Source: an uncultured archaeon | GTDB lineage: Archaea; Iainarchaeota; Iainarchaeia; Iainarchaeales; JAAZKV01 | Assembly: GCA_964583285.1 (NCBI GenBank) | Contig: CAZOVD010000002.1 | Span: 2,940-66,939 of the forward strand | DNA length: 64,000 bases | Direction: 5' to 3' | Shown: positions 51,424 to 59,942 of the stretch, piece by piece | Layout of the letters: every line of letters starts with the position of its first letter | How positions within the stretch are numbered: the stretch's first letter is position 1 | Notes under the pieces: model-generated | What the model was told of the DNA's origin: nothing | Databases searched by the model: none | Seen by the model: only the letters and a program-made list of their open reading frames with translations | Program-made: the position numbers and the translations under genes

Positions 51424-51870
51424 ATGAAAAAATTTTCAGTTACAAAACATATAAGATTTGATTATGGACATAGAGTACCATTTCATAAATCTAAATGCTA
51501 CAATACACACGGTCACAATGGAGAAGTTCATGCTACAATTGAAGGACCATTAGTAGATATTAATAACGATAATGATTTTGGTATGGTAATGGATTTTAGT
51601 AAAATAAAAGAATTACTAATGAAAGTGAGTCATGATAGATTTGACCACAAATTTTTACTTTGGAAAGATGACCCATTATATTTACAATATAAAGATTTAC
51701 CAGGTATGGTTACTGTTGATTTTGTTCCAACAGCAGAAAATTTAGCTAAACATATTTACGAAGAATTACAAAAAGAACTAGATAATATTAATTTTAAAGG
51801 AAAAGTAACTAATGTTAGGTTTTTTGAAACACCAACAAGTTATGCTGATTATAGTGGAGATGATGAATAA
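51424..51870 (+). CDS. queD: 6-carboxy-5,6,7,8-tetrahydropterin synthase (QueD, PTPS family)
   Basis: 'FDYGHRVPFHKSKCYNTHGHNGEV' carries the His/Cys zinc and catalytic pattern of PTPS/QueD; 148 aa. Confidence 0.85.
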   Translation: MKKFSVTKHIRFDYGHRVPFHKSKCYNTHGHNGEVHATIEGPLVDINNDNDFGMVMDFSKIKELLMKVSHDRFDHKFLLWKDDPLYLQYKDLPGMVTVDFVPTAENLAKHIYEELQKELDNINFKGKVTNVRFFETPTSYADYSGDDE

Positions 51871-52628
51871 TGCCAATAACTTTAATTGATTCATTTCCTA
51901 AAGAAAAAAGAGAAGCAAGAAAAGATGGTTCTGCTATTTTACATATAGCAGAAAATTTTATGGATACTATTCAAGGTGAAAATATGGTTGGTGTTCCTAG
52001 TACTTTTTTAAGATTGCAAGGTTGTACTCTTAATTGTGTCTGGTGTGATACTGCTGAAGTATGGAGACAAGGAAACCCATATTCTGTAGATGAAATACTT
52101 GATATATGGGACCAAACTGGTTTACTTTTTAAATTTGAAGAAGGCCAACATTTAATTTTAACAGGTGGAAGTCCATTAAAGCAACAAGATGCTTTAATTG
52201 AATTAATTACTAAAGTAAAAGAAATTAGTCCAAAAACAATTGTTGAAATAGAAAATGAATGCGTATTAATGCCAAAACAAGAAATGATTGATTTAGTAGA
52301 TATTTGGAATAATAGTCCAAAATTAAAAAATAGTGGCATGAATGAATTAGTTAGATATAAACCTGAAGTATTAACAAAAGTTTCTGGTTTAGAAAATAGT
52401 TATTTTAAATTTGTAATAACTTCAGAAGAAGATTGGCAAGAAATTAAAAATGATTTTTTAGACCCTGGTTGTATTAAAAAAGAACAAATAGTATTAATGC
52501 CAGAAGGACAAACAAGAGAAGAATTACAAAAACATTATGATATTGCGGTAAACATTGCTGTAAGAGAAAATGTAAGATTTACAGATAGATTGCATGTAAC
52601 AATTTGGAATAAGAAGACGGGCGTATAA
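51870..52628 (+). CDS. queE: 7-carboxy-7-deazaguanine synthase (QueE, radical SAM)
   Basis: 'FLRLQGCTLNCVWCDT' (CxxxCxxC) and 'LTGGSPL'. TAATG junction with queD. Confidence 0.85.
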   Translation: MPITLIDSFPKEKREARKDGSAILHIAENFMDTIQGENMVGVPSTFLRLQGCTLNCVWCDTAEVWRQGNPYSVDEILDIWDQTGLLFKFEEGQHLILTGGSPLKQQDALIELITKVKEISPKTIVEIENECVLMPKQEMIDLVDIWNNSPKLKNSGMNELVRYKPEVLTKVSGLENSYFKFVITSEEDWQEIKNDFLDPGCIKKEQIVLMPEGQTREELQKHYDIAVNIAVRENVRFTDRLHVTIWNKKTGV

Positions 52629-52630
52629 TT

Positions 52631-53044
52631 ATGGTAAAAAAAGTATATGTTAGTTATGAAGACGTAAAATCAGCAATAGAATTATTATGGGAATTATATA
52701 ATTCTGAAGCAGAAGTTGAACAAATGAAATATGTTTATGGTGTTCCAAGAGGTGGAATTATTCCAGCAATAATGTTTTCAAATATATCTGGTTTAAAATA
52801 TATTGATATATTAGATAAAAAAATTCATACACCACAAAATACTATTGTTATTGATGATATAGTTGATAGTGGCAAAACAAGAAAAAAATATATTGATTAT
52901 TTTTTTTCAGCAATTATTGATAAAATAGAAGCTCAAGATTATAAAGGTAAATGGATTGAATTTTTTTGGGAAAAAACAGAAGCAGATGATAAAGATTTAG
53001 TATTAAGAATAGCACAAAGATTAGGAGTTGATATAAAATGCTAG
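52631..53044 (+). CDS. type I purine phosphoribosyltransferase, XGPRT-like
   Basis: 'YGVPRGGIIPAIMF' and the PRPP loop 'IVIDDIVDSGKT'. Colinear with E. coli Gpt blocks ('AVSRGGLVPGALL', 'FIVIDDLVDTGGT', 'WIEQPWD' versus 'WIEFFWE'). Confidence 0.7.
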   Translation: MVKKVYVSYEDVKSAIELLWELYNSEAEVEQMKYVYGVPRGGIIPAIMFSNISGLKYIDILDKKIHTPQNTIVIDDIVDSGKTRKKYIDYFFSAIIDKIEAQDYKGKWIEFFWEKTEADDKDLVLRIAQRLGVDIKC

Positions 53045-53706
53045 ATAAAAGTAAAACTAATCCAGAACTTGGAAAAAAAGTAAATGATTATTTAAAAGAA
53101 AAAGGAGTTCATACGCCAACAGAAATGCATAATAATATGGACAATAAAGAAAAGAAAGAGTATATTGAATCATTATATAATAATATAATGGAAGCTCTTA
53201 ATCAAGATTTAAATGATGATAGTTTAAAAGATACTCCTAGAAGAGTTGCTAAAATGTATGTTGATGAATTATTTTGGGGTATGGATTCAAATAATTTTCC
53301 TAAATGTACAGCAGTTGAAAATAAAATGAAATATGATGAAATGGTTGTTGAAAAAAATATTAAAGTAGCTTCAGTATGTGAGCATCATATACAACCTATT
53401 TGGGGTAAATGCCATATAGCATATATACCAGATAAAAAAGTAATTGGTTTAAGTAAAATGAATAGAATAGTAGAATATTTTTGTAGAAGACCACAAATAC
53501 AAGAGCGTTTAACAGAACAAATTTATTATGCATTATCTTATATTTTAGAAACACCAAATGTAGCAGTAGTAATTGATGCTGAACATTTTTGTGTAAAACT
53601 AAGAGGAGTAGAAGATATTAATTCTAGTACTGTAACAAGTAAACTTGGAAAAAAATTTATTGAAGAACCAGAATTAAGAGCTGAATTTATGGGGTTGATA
53701 AAATGA
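53038..53706 (+). CDS. folE: GTP cyclohydrolase I (FolE type 1)
   Basis: 'TPRRVAKMY', 'SVCEHHIQPIWGKCHIAYIP' and 'RPQIQERLT'. Confidence 0.9.
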   Translation: MLDKSKTNPELGKKVNDYLKEKGVHTPTEMHNNMDNKEKKEYIESLYNNIMEALNQDLNDDSLKDTPRRVAKMYVDELFWGMDSNNFPKCTAVENKMKYDEMVVEKNIKVASVCEHHIQPIWGKCHIAYIPDKKVIGLSKMNRIVEYFCRRPQIQERLTEQIYYALSYILETPNVAVVIDAEHFCVKLRGVEDINSSTVTSKLGKKFIEEPELRAEFMGLIK

Positions 53707-54476
53707 GTGAAAAAGCTGTAATAATATTGTCTGGAGGAATGGATTCTGTAGTGTTACTACATTATCTAATAAAAAAATTAAATAAAAAAGTGCATGCCTT
53801 AAGTTTTGATTATGGACAAAAACATAATATTGAACTTGAAATGGCTAAAAAAAATATTGAGGAATTGAAAGAAAATATTGTTGATTGGAAAATTCTTGAT
53901 ATTACATTTATGAAAGAATTATTAAAAGGAAGCAATGCCTTAACAGATGATAATATTGAAGTTCCAACTCTTGAAGAAGTAATTGGAGAGCCACAACCTA
54001 TTACATATGTTCCAATGAGAAATTTAATGTTTTTAACTCTTGCATCAGCTTATGCTGAAGCTGTTGGAGCATCTGATGTGTATTATGGAGCACAAAAACA
54101 TGATGAATATTCAGGTTATTGGGATACTACTTCAATGTTTAGAGATAAATTAAATGATGTTTTAACACTTGATAGAAAAAATACTATTAAGATTAAAGCA
54201 CCATTTGTTAACTTGCATAAATCAGAAGAAGTTATTCTTGGTAATGATTTAGGAGTTGATTTTTCTAAAACATGGACTTCATATAAGGTAATTGATATAG
54301 AAAATTTAATTGCTGATATTGATAATCCCACAAGTAGGGATAGAATTAAAGCGTTTGCAGAAGCAGGTATTCCTGACCCACAAAAATATAATAAAGAAAT
54401 TAATTGGGAAGAATTATTTGAAAAATATAAAAAAGATTTTACAGTTGAAGAAGTATCTAAAAAATTGGTGTTATAG
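53703..54476 (+). CDS. queC: QueC-like PP-loop ATPase lacking the four zinc-ligand cysteines
   Basis: 'AVIILSGGMDSVV' and 'YVPMRNLMFL' are QueC-like. Where B. subtilis QueC has 'LTCYNG...GCGECPACHLR', this protein has 'TWTSYKV...IDNPTSRDRIK'. Confidence 0.7.
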   Translation: MSEKAVIILSGGMDSVVLLHYLIKKLNKKVHALSFDYGQKHNIELEMAKKNIEELKENIVDWKILDITFMKELLKGSNALTDDNIEVPTLEEVIGEPQPITYVPMRNLMFLTLASAYAEAVGASDVYYGAQKHDEYSGYWDTTSMFRDKLNDVLTLDRKNTIKIKAPFVNLHKSEEVILGNDLGVDFSKTWTSYKVIDIENLIADIDNPTSRDRIKAFAEAGIPDPQKYNKEINWEELFEKYKKDFTVEEVSKKLVL

Positions 54477-55055
54477 ATGTGTGGTATTGTTGGTTGGAAA
54501 GAATGGAATTCAAGTATTAAAAATTTACAATATTTAAACAGCAAACGCGGTGGATATTCTACAGGTGTATTTAATTTTGAAAATAATTATTCGTTTTCAA
54601 ATGAAGGAACATTTTTTCCAACTGATACAAATAATTCTATTGTTCAATACCGTGCTCCAACTGCAGGTATTAATAATTTTATAAAACAAGAAAATTATCC
54701 ATTGAAATATAAAAATTGGAATTTATTTGGAAATGGTGTAATTAATGCTGATTTTTTTAAGCAAATTAAAGATGAAGATAACAATAATGATTTATACTAT
54801 ATATTAAAAGGAATTGTGAATAATGGTTTTAAATGGCTTGAAAAAGTTGAAGGAACATTTGCATTGGTTATTATTGATGACAATCATAATATTTATCTAA
54901 TACGAAAAGATTTTCCATTATTTTTTAATAAAAATCAATTTAGTAGTATTCAATTTGATAATAGTGAAAAACTTAAAAGTGGAATTTTATATGATTGGAC
55001 GTATAATAAACATGTTAAAGAATTAAATTTTAAAGAAGAATATTTACATTTATAG
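54477..55055 (+). CDS. stand-alone class II (Ntn) glutamine amidotransferase domain
   Basis: N-terminal 'MCGIVG' (Cys2 nucleophile). AsnB-like blocks 'KRGGYSTGV', 'GNGVINA' and 'VEGTFALVIIDDNHNIYLIRKDFPLFF'. Confidence 0.7.
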   Translation: MCGIVGWKEWNSSIKNLQYLNSKRGGYSTGVFNFENNYSFSNEGTFFPTDTNNSIVQYRAPTAGINNFIKQENYPLKYKNWNLFGNGVINADFFKQIKDEDNNNDLYYILKGIVNNGFKWLEKVEGTFALVIIDDNHNIYLIRKDFPLFFNKNQFSSIQFDNSEKLKSGILYDWTYNKHVKELNFKEEYLHL

Positions 55056-55067
55056 GAGTGATTTAAA

Positions 55068-55547
55068 ATGAGTAGAAATGATGAAGAATTAAAAGATGTT
55101 ACCTTATTAGGTAATCAAAATACAAAATATGAAATGGATGAGGTTAAACCAGAATTACTTGAAACGTTTGATAATAAACACCCAGAAAATGATTATCTTG
55201 TTTCTTGGAAGTGCCCAGAATTTACAAGTACTTGCCCAAAAACAGGACAGCCAGATTTTGCAACAATAATAATTCAATATGTTCCAAGAATTAAAATGGT
55301 TGAATCAAAATCATTAAAACTATATTTATTTAGTTTTAGAAATCATGGAGATTTTCATGAAGATTGCGTAAATATTATTATGAAGGATTTAATTAAATTA
55401 ATGGACCCTAAATGGATTAGAGTAATAGGAGATTTTACACCAAGAGGTGGAATAAGTATAAATCCAATTGCAGAATATACAGCAAAAGATTATACACCAC
55501 CGGCACATTATCTAGCATTACCACAAATACATCAAAGACATCTATAG
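55068..55547 (+). CDS. queF: NADPH-dependent preQ0 reductase (QueF, unimodular type)
   Basis: Catalytic '[13 protein letters not shown]' and the QueF motif '[21 protein letters not shown]'; 159 aa. Confidence 0.85.
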
Positions 55548-55556
55548 AGTGATATT

Positions 55557-56021
55557 ATGAATCAGTTACTAATAGATGTTGATGTAGATTTATTACAAGT
55601 TAGGGGACCAGTTGAAGATGATATTCGTCAATGTCAAAAATTACTTGAACAATGCAGTACATTTGTTTATGCTACAACTTTGAAGGAAATGATAAAAAAA
55701 CATAGAGTATTTATTCTTGGTGAAATTGGATGCCCTATTGGAATAATTGTATTTAATGCATCATTTAATACAATATCATATTTAGCAGTTCATACGCAAT
55801 TCAGACAAAAAGGTATTGCTCAAAAGTTATTTAATTATGGTATAGATTATCATAATATAAATAGTTTAATAATAAAAGCAATGATTGATGAACCAAGTTC
55901 TGAACCATTTTGGTCTAAACTTGGTTTCATTTCTACTCAAAAAATCTATACCACTAAACGAAAAAAGTTACTTGAAATGATTTGGTATAGAAAAAAATCA
56001 TGTGAGGTTAGTTTAATATGA
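55557..56021 (+). CDS. GNAT-family N-acetyltransferase
   Basis: Acetyl-CoA motif A 'LAVHTQFRQKGIAQKLF' and C-terminal 'FWSKLGF'; 154 aa. Confidence 0.65.
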   Translation: MNQLLIDVDVDLLQVRGPVEDDIRQCQKLLEQCSTFVYATTLKEMIKKHRVFILGEIGCPIGIIVFNASFNTISYLAVHTQFRQKGIAQKLFNYGIDYHNINSLIIKAMIDEPSSEPFWSKLGFISTQKIYTTKRKKLLEMIWYRKKSCEVSLI

Positions 56022-57202
56022 ATAGAAATTTTTTTGAAGCAAATAAATTAGTATATTTACCTGCAATTTTGCCAGCAAAAGGTCTTTATTGTAATAATCA
56101 TGGGTTGGATTTTGAACCTCAATTTTGGAACAATAAAGGTATATGGCAATATGATAATTTACTAGTATCAACATATCATGCAAAAGAAATAAAAAATTTT
56201 AGAGAAGAACTTGAAATAGATAATAAAGTAAAAATACTTGGCGATAGCGGAGGTTTTCAAGCTGTAACACTTGGCGGTGATTTAAACGCTAAAGAAGTAA
56301 TTAAATGGCAATTAAGTAATTGCGATGCAGGATTAATTCTTGATAGACCGCCATATGAATTTAATAATACTGCTCAATTTAGTGGAACTCCAACTGAAGA
56401 ATTTTTTAATAAATGCTTACAAATAACATATGATAATGCAAAAATTGCTTTATTATATAATAATGAATCATATGAAAATCACTCTGATAAACCTATAAGA
56501 TTATATGGAGTTATTCAAGGTGAAACTTGGCAACAGATGATTAATTGGTATAAAAGAATGCATGAATTAGAAATTGAAACAAAATATGAATTTAATGCTT
56601 GGGCTATGTCTCCAAAACCATCTTATGACCCAATTAAAATTGCTATGTTTGGAATTATTGCTCTTGAATATAAATTAAATAAACCAATTCATATTTTACA
56701 AGTTAGTGGAAAAGGTGGTATCTTTATTGGAGCATTAATTAGAAAATTGACAGGCCAACCTGTAACAATTGATTCATCTACTTGGGGTGTTTCAGCAAGA
56801 TATGGAACAGCAATTGACCCATTAAATATTCCAGATTTAACGCCTGTTGGGCAAAAACTTAATACAGATAATATGTCTGGATGGTTTTGTGATTGTCCAA
56901 TATGTTCTAAATTAAAAATAAATGTAGAAAAAATTGGAGAAAAATATACTCATTATTTAAATGTTCATAATTTATATCAACTTGCTAAAATTACAAAATA
57001 TTTTGATTTTATGATTCAAAATAAAAACGAAGATATTATTTTAATTGCAAGAAGAATTTCTAAAGATTGCGAAACTGCAGCGCAAATGCTATTAGATTAT
57101 AAACAATTTGGATTTAAATATACTGCAAATAAATATAGAGAGGTTTTTAATGATGAAAATAAAATAAATTTAAAAAATCAAACAAATATATTTAATTTTT
57201 AA
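56018..57202 (+). CDS. dpdA: DpdA-type DNA-guanine transglycosylase (TGT superfamily)
   Basis: 'KILGDSGGFQ' and the zinc motif 'FCDCPICSKL...YLNVHNLY'; 394 aa, ATGA-coupled. C-terminus 'QTNIFNF*'. Confidence 0.8.
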   Translation: MNRNFFEANKLVYLPAILPAKGLYCNNHGLDFEPQFWNNKGIWQYDNLLVSTYHAKEIKNFREELEIDNKVKILGDSGGFQAVTLGGDLNAKEVIKWQLSNCDAGLILDRPPYEFNNTAQFSGTPTEEFFNKCLQITYDNAKIALLYNNESYENHSDKPIRLYGVIQGETWQQMINWYKRMHELEIETKYEFNAWAMSPKPSYDPIKIAMFGIIALEYKLNKPIHILQVSGKGGIFIGALIRKLTGQPVTIDSSTWGVSARYGTAIDPLNIPDLTPVGQKLNTDNMSGWFCDCPICSKLKINVEKIGEKYTHYLNVHNLYQLAKITKYFDFMIQNKNEDIILIARRISKDCETAAQMLLDYKQFGFKYTANKYREVFNDENKINLKNQTNIFNF

Positions 57203-57216
57203 GGAGGGGATTTGAG

Positions 57217-59127
57217 ATAGAAAAAATTTTAATATATGATTTAGAGACAAAAACTCCAGAAAAAGCACCTAATCCTGAACTTGATGAAGTCAGAGTTATT
57301 GGTTTTTGGTCTAGTATTACTAATGAATATCATATTGAATTTTATGATAATTATAAAACAAAACAAGACTTTCTGAATAAAATTAAAAATATTTTTGCTG
57401 TTCATGATTTTTTAGTTGGTTTTAATAATTTACAATACGATAATTCAGTTTTATATCATAATAAATTACATGGCATAAATACTAATAAATGGGGTGATTA
57501 TACAATTATTGGCAAAGTGAATATTGATTTAATGCAAATATTTAAAATGCGCGCTGGTGCAATGAAAATAGATAAAGGGATGCTTGGAGATTTATTAATG
57601 AGTTATAGTCTTGATTTTATTTCTCAAACAATTGGTATTGTTAAAAATAATGGAAAAATTAAAGATTTTGATTATATGTTATTAAATAAAGATTCTTGGA
57701 GTAAAGAAGAAAAAGAAAACATAAAAGAATATACATTAAAAGATATTGAAGTAACTAAAAAAATGTATGATTGGCTTGAAAATTATTTTGAAGGATTTAA
57801 GCCTTTTTTAAAAGAAGAAGATAATAAAAAGAAAGATTATTTAACAATACCAATAAGTGTTTTTGCTTATAAATCAATATGTAAAGCAATGAATTGGCAA
57901 GAAGAATATGCAAAGAAAAATCATCATACAAGTTATGGTGGAGGATATGTTGCTTATCCTGCTGGAGAACATTTTTCAGGAAATATTTATTGTCTTGATT
58001 TTAATTCTTTATATCCTTCTATAATGCATCAATGTAATATTTATTCACCTGTAGCTTATAGTAATGATGGTGATGAAGCAATTAAAACTTGTTGGACAGG
58101 AAATAATAAGTTTAAGGTAGAAGGATGTTATGATACTAGACAACAAGGCAAAGTAGAAAAATTATTAAAAGAATGGTATGAACAAAGATTAATTTGGAAA
58201 AAACAAAGAGACCCAAGAGAATATTCTATTAAAATAATTATTAATACAATTTATGGATTATTAGGAAATGAAGCGTTTAAACATATTGCTAATCCTATTT
58301 CTGCCGGTGATGTAACTAGAATTGGACGTCAATGGGTAAAACTCTCAAGAACAAGATTTAAAGAAGCTGGATATGAAGTAATTTATACTGATACTGATTC
58401 TGTATATATTATTGATAAAGTTAATGATAAAGAAAAAATGTTAAAAGTAAAAGATAAAATAATACAAGAAATAAAAGAAAATATTCCATTCCCATATGAA
58501 AATTTTGATATGGGAGTTGATGATGAAATATCTGATATGTGGTTCTTTAAAGGTGGAATAAAAGATAAAGATACTGATGATGAAATGGACGAAATGGATT
58601 TTGAAAATAAATCAAAAGGTTTTATGAAAAAAAATTATATCTATAGAACAATAGATGGTAAAGTAAAAGTTAAAAACCTTGGTGTTAGAAAAAAATCTAC
58701 TAGTGCTTTAACAAGAAAAATATTTTGGGATTATTTAATACCAAAAATCAGTCAAGAACGAAAAGTTAAATTTCCAAAAGAATATTTTGTTGAAGTAATA
58801 GATGAAATATTAAAAAAAGATATCAAAACTGCAGCAAAAAGATTTCAGGTTGCACCATTAGAAACTTATAAATTAGATGGACAATTACAAGCACAAATAG
58901 CCAAAGAATATGGCCCAGGAATACATTTTTTAATTAGAAATAAAAGAATAGGAATAGGAAAAGGTGTAAAATATTGTACTATAGATGAATTTATTTCTAG
59001 TAAATTAACAACAAAAGATTTAGTTCTTACAGGTATTTGGAAAGAATTAGCTTATTTTATTGATGGAGATATAGAATTAGAATCTGAAAAATATTCCCAA
59101 AGTACTGCATTAACGGAGTGGTTTTAA
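57217..59127 (+). CDS. polB: family B DNA polymerase with 3'-5' exonuclease; apparent non-ATG (ATA) start
   Basis: ExoI 'ILIYDLET', ExoII 'GFNNLQYDNSVL' and ExoIII 'YTLKDIEV'. Pol motifs A 'DFNSLYPSIM', B 'KIIINTIYGLLG' and C 'YTDTDS'. The track ORF (57517) omits ExoI and ExoII. Confidence 0.85.
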   Translation: MEKILIYDLETKTPEKAPNPELDEVRVIGFWSSITNEYHIEFYDNYKTKQDFLNKIKNIFAVHDFLVGFNNLQYDNSVLYHNKLHGINTNKWGDYTIIGKVNIDLMQIFKMRAGAMKIDKGMLGDLLMSYSLDFISQTIGIVKNNGKIKDFDYMLLNKDSWSKEEKENIKEYTLKDIEVTKKMYDWLENYFEGFKPFLKEEDNKKKDYLTIPISVFAYKSICKAMNWQEEYAKKNHHTSYGGGYVAYPAGEHFSGNIYCLDFNSLYPSIMHQCNIYSPVAYSNDGDEAIKTCWTGNNKFKVEGCYDTRQQGKVEKLLKEWYEQRLIWKKQRDPREYSIKIIINTIYGLLGNEAFKHIANPISAGDVTRIGRQWVKLSRTRFKEAGYEVIYTDTDSVYIIDKVNDKEKMLKVKDKIIQEIKENIPFPYENFDMGVDDEISDMWFFKGGIKDKDTDDEMDEMDFENKSKGFMKKNYIYRTIDGKVKVKNLGVRKKSTSALTRKIFWDYLIPKISQERKVKFPKEYFVEVIDEILKKDIKTAAKRFQVAPLETYKLDGQLQAQIAKEYGPGIHFLIRNKRIGIGKGVKYCTIDEFISSKLTTKDLVLTGIWKELAYFIDGDIELESEKYSQSTALTEWF

Positions 59128-59942
59128 TGCCAAAATTATGGAATTCAATTAGAATAGAAATGTACAATAAACTTCTTGATAAAAATATTGAAGAAAAAGT
59201 ATTATATGATATTATGAACCATGCAAGTTATCTTGGTTTGCAAAACATTGTTTTAGATAATATTAATATAAATTGTTTTTCAAAATTTAATTTTAATACA
59301 ATTATTTCATATGTAAAGAAAAAAGAATTAAGTATAAAATTAATATTTACTGATTTTATTAGTGAAGGATTAATGAAACAATATATTCAAGAATATAATG
59401 ATATATGTTTTATTCGCACACAAAGTAATGAAGGTTTAGATTTATTTAAAAATATTATTTTTGAAATTTCAACTAATAATTTAAATTTAAATTATGAGAA
59501 AGTATTTATTGATTTTAAAAATAATAAGAAAAAAATATGGTTAGAAATTGTTAATTATTATGATAAGAATCAAGAAACATTTTGGTGCGGGGGAGAAAGA
59601 ATTGCTGGAAATGGATTTAGTATAAATGATAGAAGTAGAATTAAATCTATTATTCGTTCTGCAAAGAAACATAATATCCAAAACTTTGACTATTTATTGA
59701 AAGCTGATACTTATGGTATTACGCAAAATTTTAACTGTAAGTATTTATTATTACCTACTGTTAAAATTGATGGAAGTATTTGGAATTGTAAACAAAGACC
59801 ATTTATAAAACCTATATCATTCTTAGATATAAAACCGAGAGAAGAAAATGTATTATCAGGACTATTAATTAATACTAGCAAAAATTGTACTGGATGTTGG
59901 CAACCAGAATTATTTGGAGGTATTACCAATGAAATTAGATAG
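59118..59942 (+). CDS. radical-SAM/SPASM-like protein lacking the CxxxCxxC cluster
   Basis: C-terminal 'LLLPTVKIDGSIWNCKQ...NCTGCW' is SPASM/twitch-like. No N-terminal Cys triad. Confidence 0.3.
   Translation: MVLMPKLWNSIRIEMYNKLLDKNIEEKVLYDIMNHASYLGLQNIVLDNININCFSKFNFNTIISYVKKKELSIKLIFTDFISEGLMKQYIQEYNDICFIRTQSNEGLDLFKNIIFEISTNNLNLNYEKVFIDFKNNKKKIWLEIVNYYDKNQETFWCGGERIAGNGFSINDRSRIKSIIRSAKKHNIQNFDYLLKADTYGITQNFNCKYLLLPTVKIDGSIWNCKQRPFIKPISFLDIKPREENVLSGLLINTSKNCTGCWQPELFGGITNEIR

Follow-up and report, generated by a model that had tools for sequence, protein, structure and literature searches.

Where does the nitrogen of a 7-deazaguanine nitrile come from? PP-loop synthetases commonly take their ammonia from a glutaminase, examples being AsnB, NAD synthetase and GMP synthase, whose archaeal form has two subunits. 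In the route to 7-aminomethyl-7-deazaguanine (preQ1), a nitrogen donor is consumed at one step alone, the QueC reaction, in which adenylated 7-carboxy-7-deazaguanine (CDG) reacts with ammonia to give 7-amido-7-deazaguanine (ADG) and then 7-cyano-7-deazaguanine (preQ0). A fusion of a glutaminase module with QueC, known as Gat-QueC, was called biochemically uncharacterised in a 2016 review; together with DpdA it yields deoxyarchaeosine (dG+) in E. coli, also when queC is deleted (PMC6884629). Here we describe a locus on contig CAZOVD010000002.1, in a stretch of 64,000 nucleotides (the whole of which we call the window) assigned to an uncultured archaeon, where a QueC-like protein without zinc ligands is followed directly by a free-standing class-II glutamine amidotransferase (Gat). 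The window is clearly phage-like, with 28% G+C, 89% coding density under the standard code and 76 open reading frames (ORFs). Because QueC is the only step of the route to use a nitrogen donor, and because PP-loop synthetases typically use a glutaminase, we interpret the two proteins as the subunits of a glutamine-dependent preQ0 synthase, which is encoded in a nine-gene operon and would supply QueF and, after it, a DpdA-like transglycosylase. We give this reading a probability of roughly 60%.

The features of the pair are as follows; Ntn stands for N-terminal nucleophile, AF2 for AlphaFold2 and pLDDT for the predicted local distance difference test.

53703-54476, plus strand: zinc-less QueC (PP-loop ATPase) of 257 residues, predicted preQ0 synthase subunit; assigned from Pfam QueC, TIGR00364, the AF2 fold and the lack of cysteine.
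53730-53747, plus strand: PP-loop SGGMDS, QueC residues 10-15, read from the sequence; S10, G11, G12 and D14 are invariant in an alignment of 58 relatives.
54270-54350, plus strand: segment in place of the C(x)8CxxCxxC zinc knuckle, QueC residues 190-216, TWTSYKVIDIENLIADIDNPTSRDRIK; placed by alignments and modelled by AF2 with a pLDDT of 93-96 throughout.
54474-54479, plus strand: TAG/ATG junction of QueC and Gat, read from the sequence, with 0 nucleotides between the genes and both in the same frame, suggesting translational coupling.
54477-55055, plus strand: free-standing class-II (Ntn) glutamine amidotransferase subunit of 192 residues, with the predicted nucleophile Cys2 at 54480-54482; assigned from AF2, Foldseek and a family profile.

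The ORFs of the window were assigned to families with Pfam, NCBIfam and PHROGs. The QueC-like protein matches Pfam QueC at 6.8e-51 (173.2 bits, cut-off 22) over profile positions 1-186 of 210, the match ending just before the zinc knuckle, and it lies narrowly above the cut-off of the NCBIfam QueC equivalog (TIGR00364, 157.2 versus 150.3). Its AF2 model has a pLDDT of 93.2, and the best fold matches are the QueC structures 2pg3 and 3bl5. The first-pass annotation had described the PP-loop and the central blocks as kept, and this is what we found: SGGxDS, YxQxHxxE (YGQKHNIE, residues 37-44) and VPxRN (VPMRN, residues 103-107) are intact and align to both structures. The YPDC motif appears as YWDT (residues 139-142), with the tyrosine and aspartate kept, proline changed to tryptophan and cysteine to threonine; similar variants occur in KVP40-type phage QueCs (YWDC or YWDT) and in the nearest cellular homologue, P0060 (YWDT). 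Mutagenesis of E. coli QueC has shown Y35, R99, Y131 and Y189 to be essential, the last of them inside the zinc region (PMC13329287). The corresponding residues of the window protein are Y37, R106, Y139 and Y194, which are invariant or nearly so in the 58 relatives, and the zinc-region tyrosine Y194 is invariant in four QueC alignments. The gene shares its operon with QueD, QueE and FolE.

The zinc ligands, in contrast, are gone. MAFFT alignments that include QueCs of phages and cells put S193, D205, N208 and S211 in the columns of the four C(x)8CxxCxxC ligands, and the earlier claim of four absent cysteines thereby holds. Against the solved B. subtilis QueC (3bl5), TWTSY pairs with TLTCY and the local alignment then stops. 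The window protein has no cysteine in its 257 residues, which by itself is not rare in this genome (cysteine frequency 1.05%, P ~0.07); what carries weight is that four otherwise invariant ligands are lost and that their replacement is conserved. Of the 124 homologues nearest to the window protein, 100 have the complete set of four cysteines, 21 have none (S-D-N-S) and three have the first only. The replacement motif KTWTSYKV[IV]DxxN[LE]IADxxNPTSxDRIxAFA is strongly conserved in the 21 sequences, which are only ~53-67% identical overall. Neither the loss of these ligands nor the conservation of their replacement is a chance event.

The second gene begins with MCGIVG at an ATG (54477-54479) that follows the TAG of QueC (54474-54476) without a gap, and the ORF is as it was first described, a class II amidotransferase of 192 residues. 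Its Pfam match is weak (GATase_7, 17.4 bits, below the 25-bit cut-off), and a family member from Pseudomonas phage pf16 passes GATase_6 (39.9 versus 27). The fold is nevertheless well supported. An AF2 model built on a 15-sequence alignment has a pLDDT of 91.3, and Foldseek matches it to the GlmS glutaminase at 4e-8, with a probability of 1.00 to GlmS (1xff), AsnB (1ct9), PurF (1ecb, 1ao0) and EgtC, consistent with an Ntn alpha-beta-beta-alpha fold. A profile of the family also finds PurF (1e-4) and GlmS (2e-4) in the PDB, aligning Cys1, the RG motif, the R-x-x-T motif and the Asn-Gly oxyanion hole; R59-x-x-T62 of the window protein falls on 'R.pT/R.aT' and N86-G87 on the NG of PurF and GlmS.

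We searched 1.84 billion cluster representatives with the Gat profile and obtained 718 matches at E<=1e-3, of which 114 reach <=1e-10 and 11 reach <=1e-30. The best 150 were taken for length and conservation. Nearly all of these 150 are 180-235 residues long and match from residue 1, and 138 start with MC. C2 is conserved in 143 of 145 members, R24-G25 in 143, T62 and N86 in all 145, and D105 in 124; N86-G87 is essentially invariant. In tblastn searches of GenBank phages, the window Gat gave one weak match and P0009 gave none. A peptide-pattern scan of IMG/VR viral contigs returned nothing, and the same kind of scan of 185,579 species genomes returned one locus, a phage-like contig in a Bacilli metagenome-assembled genome (MAG); both scans used a single pattern, so that absences from them are weak evidence. 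The subclade of the window Gat has no cultured representative.

Is the juxtaposition of the two genes more than a local accident? QueC lies within 6 kb of Gat in all 13 phage lineages with readable context: the window, the metagenomic contigs L005, L007/8, L010 (with which the Bacilli MAG contig, L028, is syntenic and is counted as one), L012, L014, L016, L017/18 and L019, the KVP40-like and the nt-1-like Vibrio phages, Vibrio phage 2.275.O and pf16. In nine of the 13, QueC directly precedes Gat with gaps of -13 to +32 nucleotides, which argues for translational coupling of the two; in KVP40 the genes share a base at the stop/start junction. QueC homologues occur in <1% of phage records (337 of 50,697). 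Because QueC stands near Gat in every lineage, and coupled upstream of it in nine, we consider that the pairing is not accidental.

In GenBank, 51 phage records carry a KVP40-type Gat, annotated as 'hypothetical protein' or 'nucleophile aminohydrolase', and the family corresponds to PHROG 12378, of unknown function. Examples are KVP40.0125 (L002:6714-7322), ORF392 of nt-1 (L003:6714-7322) and gp77 of pf16 (L023:7001-7639). Published tables of the 7-deazaguanine genes of these phages list QueC, and the Gat gene is absent from them. Our literature search, which was incomplete in coverage, found no paper on a free-standing Gat, on QueC with a glutaminase and preQ0, or on the KVP40 amidotransferase with QueC.

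Two further genes recur in these clusters. A DUF6884 protein is encoded between QueC and Gat in L010 (7360-7788) and L028 (5360-5788) and again in L017 (10317-10754), there just downstream of a polymerase gene, itself next after the DpdA-like gene. A membrane protein of the Vut_1/YhhQ family, which we take to be the family of the preQ0/preQ1 salvage transporter, is encoded directly upstream of QueC in two Gat-carrying clusters (L012:6529-7236; L001:6476-7105). This hints that such phages import precursors besides synthesising them.

How might the pair work? We infer the complex, the ammonia transfer, the product and each of the following steps. Removal of Met1 from Gat would expose Cys2 as the Ntn nucleophile, and Gat would then hydrolyse glutamine, with Asn86-Gly87 as the oxyanion hole and Arg59, Thr62 and Asp105 binding the substrate. 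The ammonia would be handed to the PP-loop site of QueC, where CDG would be adenylated and converted to the amide ADG; a second ATP would serve to dehydrate ADG to the nitrile preQ0. QueF would reduce preQ0 to preQ1, the DpdA-like enzyme would exchange preQ1 for guanine in the phage DNA, and a GNAT acetyltransferase might modify the base further. The zinc knuckle, replaced by a conserved polar hairpin, would be dispensable for catalysis, and its loss would be a separate evolutionary event unrelated to Gat.

The choice of product rests on the neighbouring gene and on phages of known DNA chemistry. QueF starts 12 nucleotides 3' of Gat, and its translation shows the catalytic-cysteine stretch and an ESKSLKLY motif; it accompanies the QueC-Gat pair in six lineages, the window and five others. 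Both phi-Grn1 and phi-ST2 carry QueC, Gat and QueF, and their DNA contains dPreQ1/mdPreQ1 and no dG+. Phage nt-1 carries QueC, Gat and ArcS; its DNA contains mainly dPreQ0, with dG+ as a minor component, and a published reconstitution in E. coli gave dG+ only when nt-1 ArcS and DpdA2 were co-expressed. Since the QueF of the window needs the nitrile, and since pair-carrying phages contain dPreQ1 or dPreQ0, preQ0 is favoured over archaeosine as the product. The same observations bear on the idea that the pair is a functional equivalent of Gat-QueC, making the archaeosine (G+) amidine from preQ0 for a phage DNA with dG+. The module content is indeed that of Gat-QueC, which with DpdA produces dG+ in E. 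coli (PMC6884629), and no QueF occurs in the stretch read for seven of the 13 lineages. Set against this are the nitrile-dependent QueF immediately downstream, the pair-carrying phi-Grn1 and phi-ST2 without dG+, the minor and ArcS-dependent dG+ of nt-1, and a Gat with no more than a remote similarity to the Gat domain in the Gat-QueC of Enterobacteria phage 9g. We regard an amidine-forming role as improbable. The first-pass annotation had proposed a two-subunit AsnB-like enzyme supplying glutamine nitrogen towards preQ0 or, alternatively, making the G+ amidine; the resemblance of the halves to a glutaminase and a PP-loop synthetase, and their pairing in every lineage, speak for such an enzyme, and the neighbouring QueF and the bases of pair-carrying phages favour its preQ0 option over the amidine.

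We then considered what the absence of zinc ligands might mean. A neighbour-joining tree places most zinc-less QueCs in a single group whose nearest sisters retain the cysteines; as far as the sequences indicate, the zinc-less proteins form a metagenomic clade, three members of which, including that of the window, have no cysteine anywhere. All four ligand cysteines are also absent from the QueC of Flavobacterium phage immuto. The immuto and window proteins share this absence but are only 31% identical and have different replacement loops, and the two losses were therefore probably independent. In immuto DNA, guanine is fully replaced by formyl-preQ1, a preQ0 derivative, and its QueC has been counted as an ordinary member of the pathway (PMC10516641). 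By inference from this phage there is a circumstantial case that a zinc-less QueC can make preQ0 in vivo. Our literature search, incomplete as stated, found no paper describing a zinc-less QueC.

Could the loss of zinc be coupled to, or compensated by, the glutaminase? The 160-kb immuto genome was searched in six frames with the Gat hidden Markov model (HMM), unfiltered (--max), and no Gat was found; the positive control, pf16, scored 1e-34. Conversely, Gat is combined with a QueC bearing the full zinc motif in KVP40, nt-1, phi-Grn1, 2.275.O, pf16, L010 and L017. Because KVP40, pf16, L010 and L017 have Gat with the cysteines, and immuto lacks the cysteines without having Gat, we treat the two features as unrelated and reject the notion of compensation. 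The nearest phage QueCs, with and without cysteines, also share a C-terminal extension of roughly 20-35 residues starting with (I/V)xWxxL(I/F)xKYKK (54395-54473 in the window); the cellular QueCs aligned with them do not have it, and a few intermediate sequences have a shorter form. Immuto QueC has it too, and it is therefore not a simple marker of Gat docking.

The missing zinc site might alternatively mark an AsnB-like amide synthase that stops at ADG, as proposed for the QueC* of Campylobacter phages. The conversion of a carboxylate to an amide with glutamine is AsnB chemistry, and the zinc region lies beside the active site and contains an essential tyrosine. That tyrosine, however, is kept in the window protein, an enzyme stopping at ADG would leave QueF without a substrate, and immuto, with its zinc-less QueC, ends with a preQ1 derivative. 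Moreover, the QueC of Campylobacter Firehammervirus retains all four cysteines, for which reason we rejected zinc loss as the mark of an ADG-only QueC*. We consider an amide-only enzyme in the window very improbable indeed.

Several observations weigh against the reading of the pair as a glutamine-dependent preQ0 synthase. First, free ammonia suffices for canonical QueC, which works without a partner. Second, immuto (no Gat) and L015 (none in the 16.8 kb that was read of a 26-kb contig) have similar, zinc-less QueCs, so that Gat is not obligatory for this type of QueC, and the QueC of the immuto host could in principle supply preQ0. Third, Gat is not adjacent to QueC in four of the 13 lineages: in L017 it adjoins the DpdA-like gene and lies 5 kb away from QueC, and in L010 it abuts FolE/TGT genes (TGT, tRNA-guanine transglycosylase). 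Fourth, Arg59 is replaced by glutamine in 96 of 145 Gat family members, KVP40 included. Fifth, EgtC, a free-standing Ntn hydrolase that donates no ammonia, is among the best fold matches of Gat. Free-standing class-II glutaminases acting as ammonia donors in trans are, in addition, rare. The absence of Gat from immuto and from what was read of L015, the position of Gat in L017 and L010, the EgtC match and this rarity are what one would cite for an ordinary, ammonia-dependent QueC whose neighbour Gat serves elsewhere in the deazaguanine pathway, be it as an uncoupled glutaminase raising the ammonia level, as a partner of the DpdA-like enzyme or as an EgtC-like amidohydrolase. We think such a division of labour rather unlikely. 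The coupled order of QueC and Gat has persisted in nine lineages while Gat diverged down to ~23% identity; the glutamine-binding and oxyanion residues of Gat are conserved; and QueC is the one enzyme of the preQ1 route that consumes ammonia, the other enzymes of the operon needing no nitrogen donor. A glutamine-dependent preQ0 synthase thus remains our preferred reading.

The first-pass annotation had further called the pair a 'split, reordered Gat-QueC'. That the halves are separate, stand in the opposite order to the fusion and coexist with QueF is correct, and the order has a simple explanation: because an Ntn nucleophile needs a free N-terminus, Gat must come first in a fusion, and separate genes are free in their order. 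Descent from the fusion by a recent split, in contrast, found no support. The Gat profile matches the Gat domain of 9g Gat-QueC with an hhalign probability of only 46%, over the N-terminal 94 columns, about as weakly as it matches PurF and GlmS, these scores being on different scales; the QueC domain of 9g is the outgroup of the neighbour-joining tree; and none of the best 150 Gat family representatives has the fusion length of roughly 470 residues. The 9g protein also keeps the zinc cysteines (CYRNGNLHCGTCGPC), whereas the window QueC does not. We also rejected a QueC-Gat fusion made by read-through of the TAG codon. TAG is an ordinary stop in the window, ending 13 of the 76 ORFs, the coding density is 89% under the standard code, and in other lineages the two genes are out of frame or overlap; the same-frame arrangement here looks accidental. 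Split systems that coexist with QueF may offer a cleaner route to learning what the glutaminase module contributes.

The operon as a whole spans 51424-57202 on the plus strand and comprises nine tightly packed genes, most of them abutting or overlapping, in the order QueD, QueE, a phosphoribosyltransferase (PRTase)-like gene, FolE, QueC, Gat, QueF, GNAT and the DpdA-like gene, followed by a family-B DNA polymerase. The members other than the pair are as follows.

51424-51870, plus strand: QueD (6-carboxytetrahydropterin synthase), the first gene of the operon; Pfam PTPS 6.9e-31, NCBIfam QueD 2.5e-23 (below cut-off).
51870-52628, plus strand: QueE (radical-SAM CDG synthase); Fer4_12/Radical_SAM, the top NCBIfam models being four QueE models, all below their cut-offs.
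52631-53044, plus strand: small PRTase-like protein, conserved in clusters of this type; phrog_8995 'phosphoribosyl transferase' 4.2e-9 and a weak NCBIfam xanthine PRTase match.
53038-53706, plus strand: FolE (GTP cyclohydrolase I); Pfam 5.8e-63, NCBIfam FolE 295 bits, above cut-off.
55068-55547, plus strand: unimodular QueF (NADPH-dependent, preQ0 to preQ1); Pfam QueF 2.9e-35, TIGR03139 175.9 bits versus a cut-off of 86.9.
55557-56021, plus strand: GNAT acetyltransferase, a candidate preQ1 modifier; Pfam Acetyltransf_10 1.3e-9.
56018-57202, plus strand: DpdA-like DNA transglycosylase, a distant TGT homologue; weak NCBIfam TgtA/tgt matches and phmmer.

By phmmer, the DpdA-like protein matches the TGT-like gene product of L017 at 1e-31, that of L010 at 1.7e-18 and DpdA2 of nt-1 at 1.9e-4. 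The PRTase-like protein is 33% identical (E 1.5e-18) to gp211 of immuto (L024:5932-6327), and both genes stand in a QueD-QueE-PRTase-FolE order; possible roles are the recycling to GMP of guanine set free by the transglycosylase, or the activation of a deazaguanine base. The GNAT gene, between QueF and the DpdA-like gene, occupies a slot similar to that of the formyltransferase beside QueF in immuto, L005 and L012. A formyltransferase of the DpdN type makes formyl-preQ1. By analogy, the GNAT may N-acetylate preQ1 or dPreQ1, giving an undescribed DNA base; a homologue search with it returned only the window GNAT itself. An ORF encoding 274 residues (59118-59942, plus strand) overlaps the end of the polymerase gene and has a cysteine-containing C-terminal part, with no Pfam or PHROG match.

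We put at about even the chance that the pair represents the first glutamine-dependent preQ0 synthase, in which Gat docks in trans on a zinc-independent QueC and channels ammonia to the CDG-adenylate. If so, the Gat module would, in every Gat/QueC system including the fusion, primarily provide nitrogen for nitrile synthesis, the G+ amidine being a derived extra, and the purpose of the glutaminase module of Gat-QueC would have a testable answer. The 'hallmark' zinc site, now used to define canonical QueC, would be dispensable. A pathway component would have been overlooked in the well-studied phages KVP40, nt-1, VH7D and phi-Grn1, in the form of a conserved, unannotated gene that no fewer than 51 GenBank phage records carry, and the large nitrogen flux that phages require for exchanging a substantial share of their guanines would be drawn from the glutamine pool, not from free ammonia. 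The pair would also provide a rare case of a class-II glutaminase acting as a separate subunit. By modifying their DNA with 7-deazaguanines, phages defeat restriction enzymes, and how these bases are made is being actively mapped. As far as we have searched the literature, the free-standing Gat partner and the zinc-less QueC are undescribed, yet they occur in sequenced phages, some of them with measured DNA chemistry.

The QueC-Gat system is not categorically new, and its parts can be compared with those of described systems. AsnB likewise joins an Ntn glutaminase to a PP-loop synthetase and, with tunnelled ammonia, turns a carboxylate into an amide by way of an acyl-adenylate; it differs in being a single chain and in stopping at the amide. 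Archaeal GMP synthase resembles the window pair in that its glutaminase and its PP-loop ATP pyrophosphatase are distinct subunits with adjacent genes, although that glutaminase is of class I (triad). Canonical QueC, the zinc-dependent and ammonia-using enzyme of B. subtilis (3BL5), Pectobacterium (2PG3) and E. coli, shares with the window protein the fold, the SGGxDS, YxQxHxxE and VPxRN motifs, the tyrosine and aspartate of YPDC, the essential tyrosine of the zinc region and the linkage to queD and queE; the window protein lacks the zinc ligands, has YWDT for YPDC and a C-terminal extension of roughly 30 residues that other phage QueCs also have, and is followed by a dedicated glutaminase gene.

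Among deazaguanine systems, Gat-QueC (gp6 of phage 9g, also found in Crenarchaeota and proposed as archaeosine synthase) has the same class-II Ntn glutaminase and QueC modules, within a phage FolE/QueD/QueE/DpdA cluster. It is a fusion, whereas the window has two polypeptides in QueC-Gat order and a Gat from a family of ~190-210 residues. The immuto cluster shares with the window the QueD-QueE-PRTase-FolE order, QueF and DpdA, and differs in having a formyltransferase (DpdN) where the window has the GNAT, and no Gat. A further counterpart is the pair KVP40.0124/KVP40.0125, with its equivalents in nt-1, phi-Grn1, phi-ST2, VH7D, pf16 and 2.275.O, in which QueC is followed by an Ntn glutaminase of ~200 residues starting with MCG, in a cluster with QueF/DpdA2. 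Their Gat belongs to the same family as that of the window (HMM E 1e-50 to 1e-56). The identities to the window proteins are ~39-41% for QueC and 21-27% for Gat, and the QueC of this group differs from that of the window in keeping the full C(x)8CxxCxxC motif.

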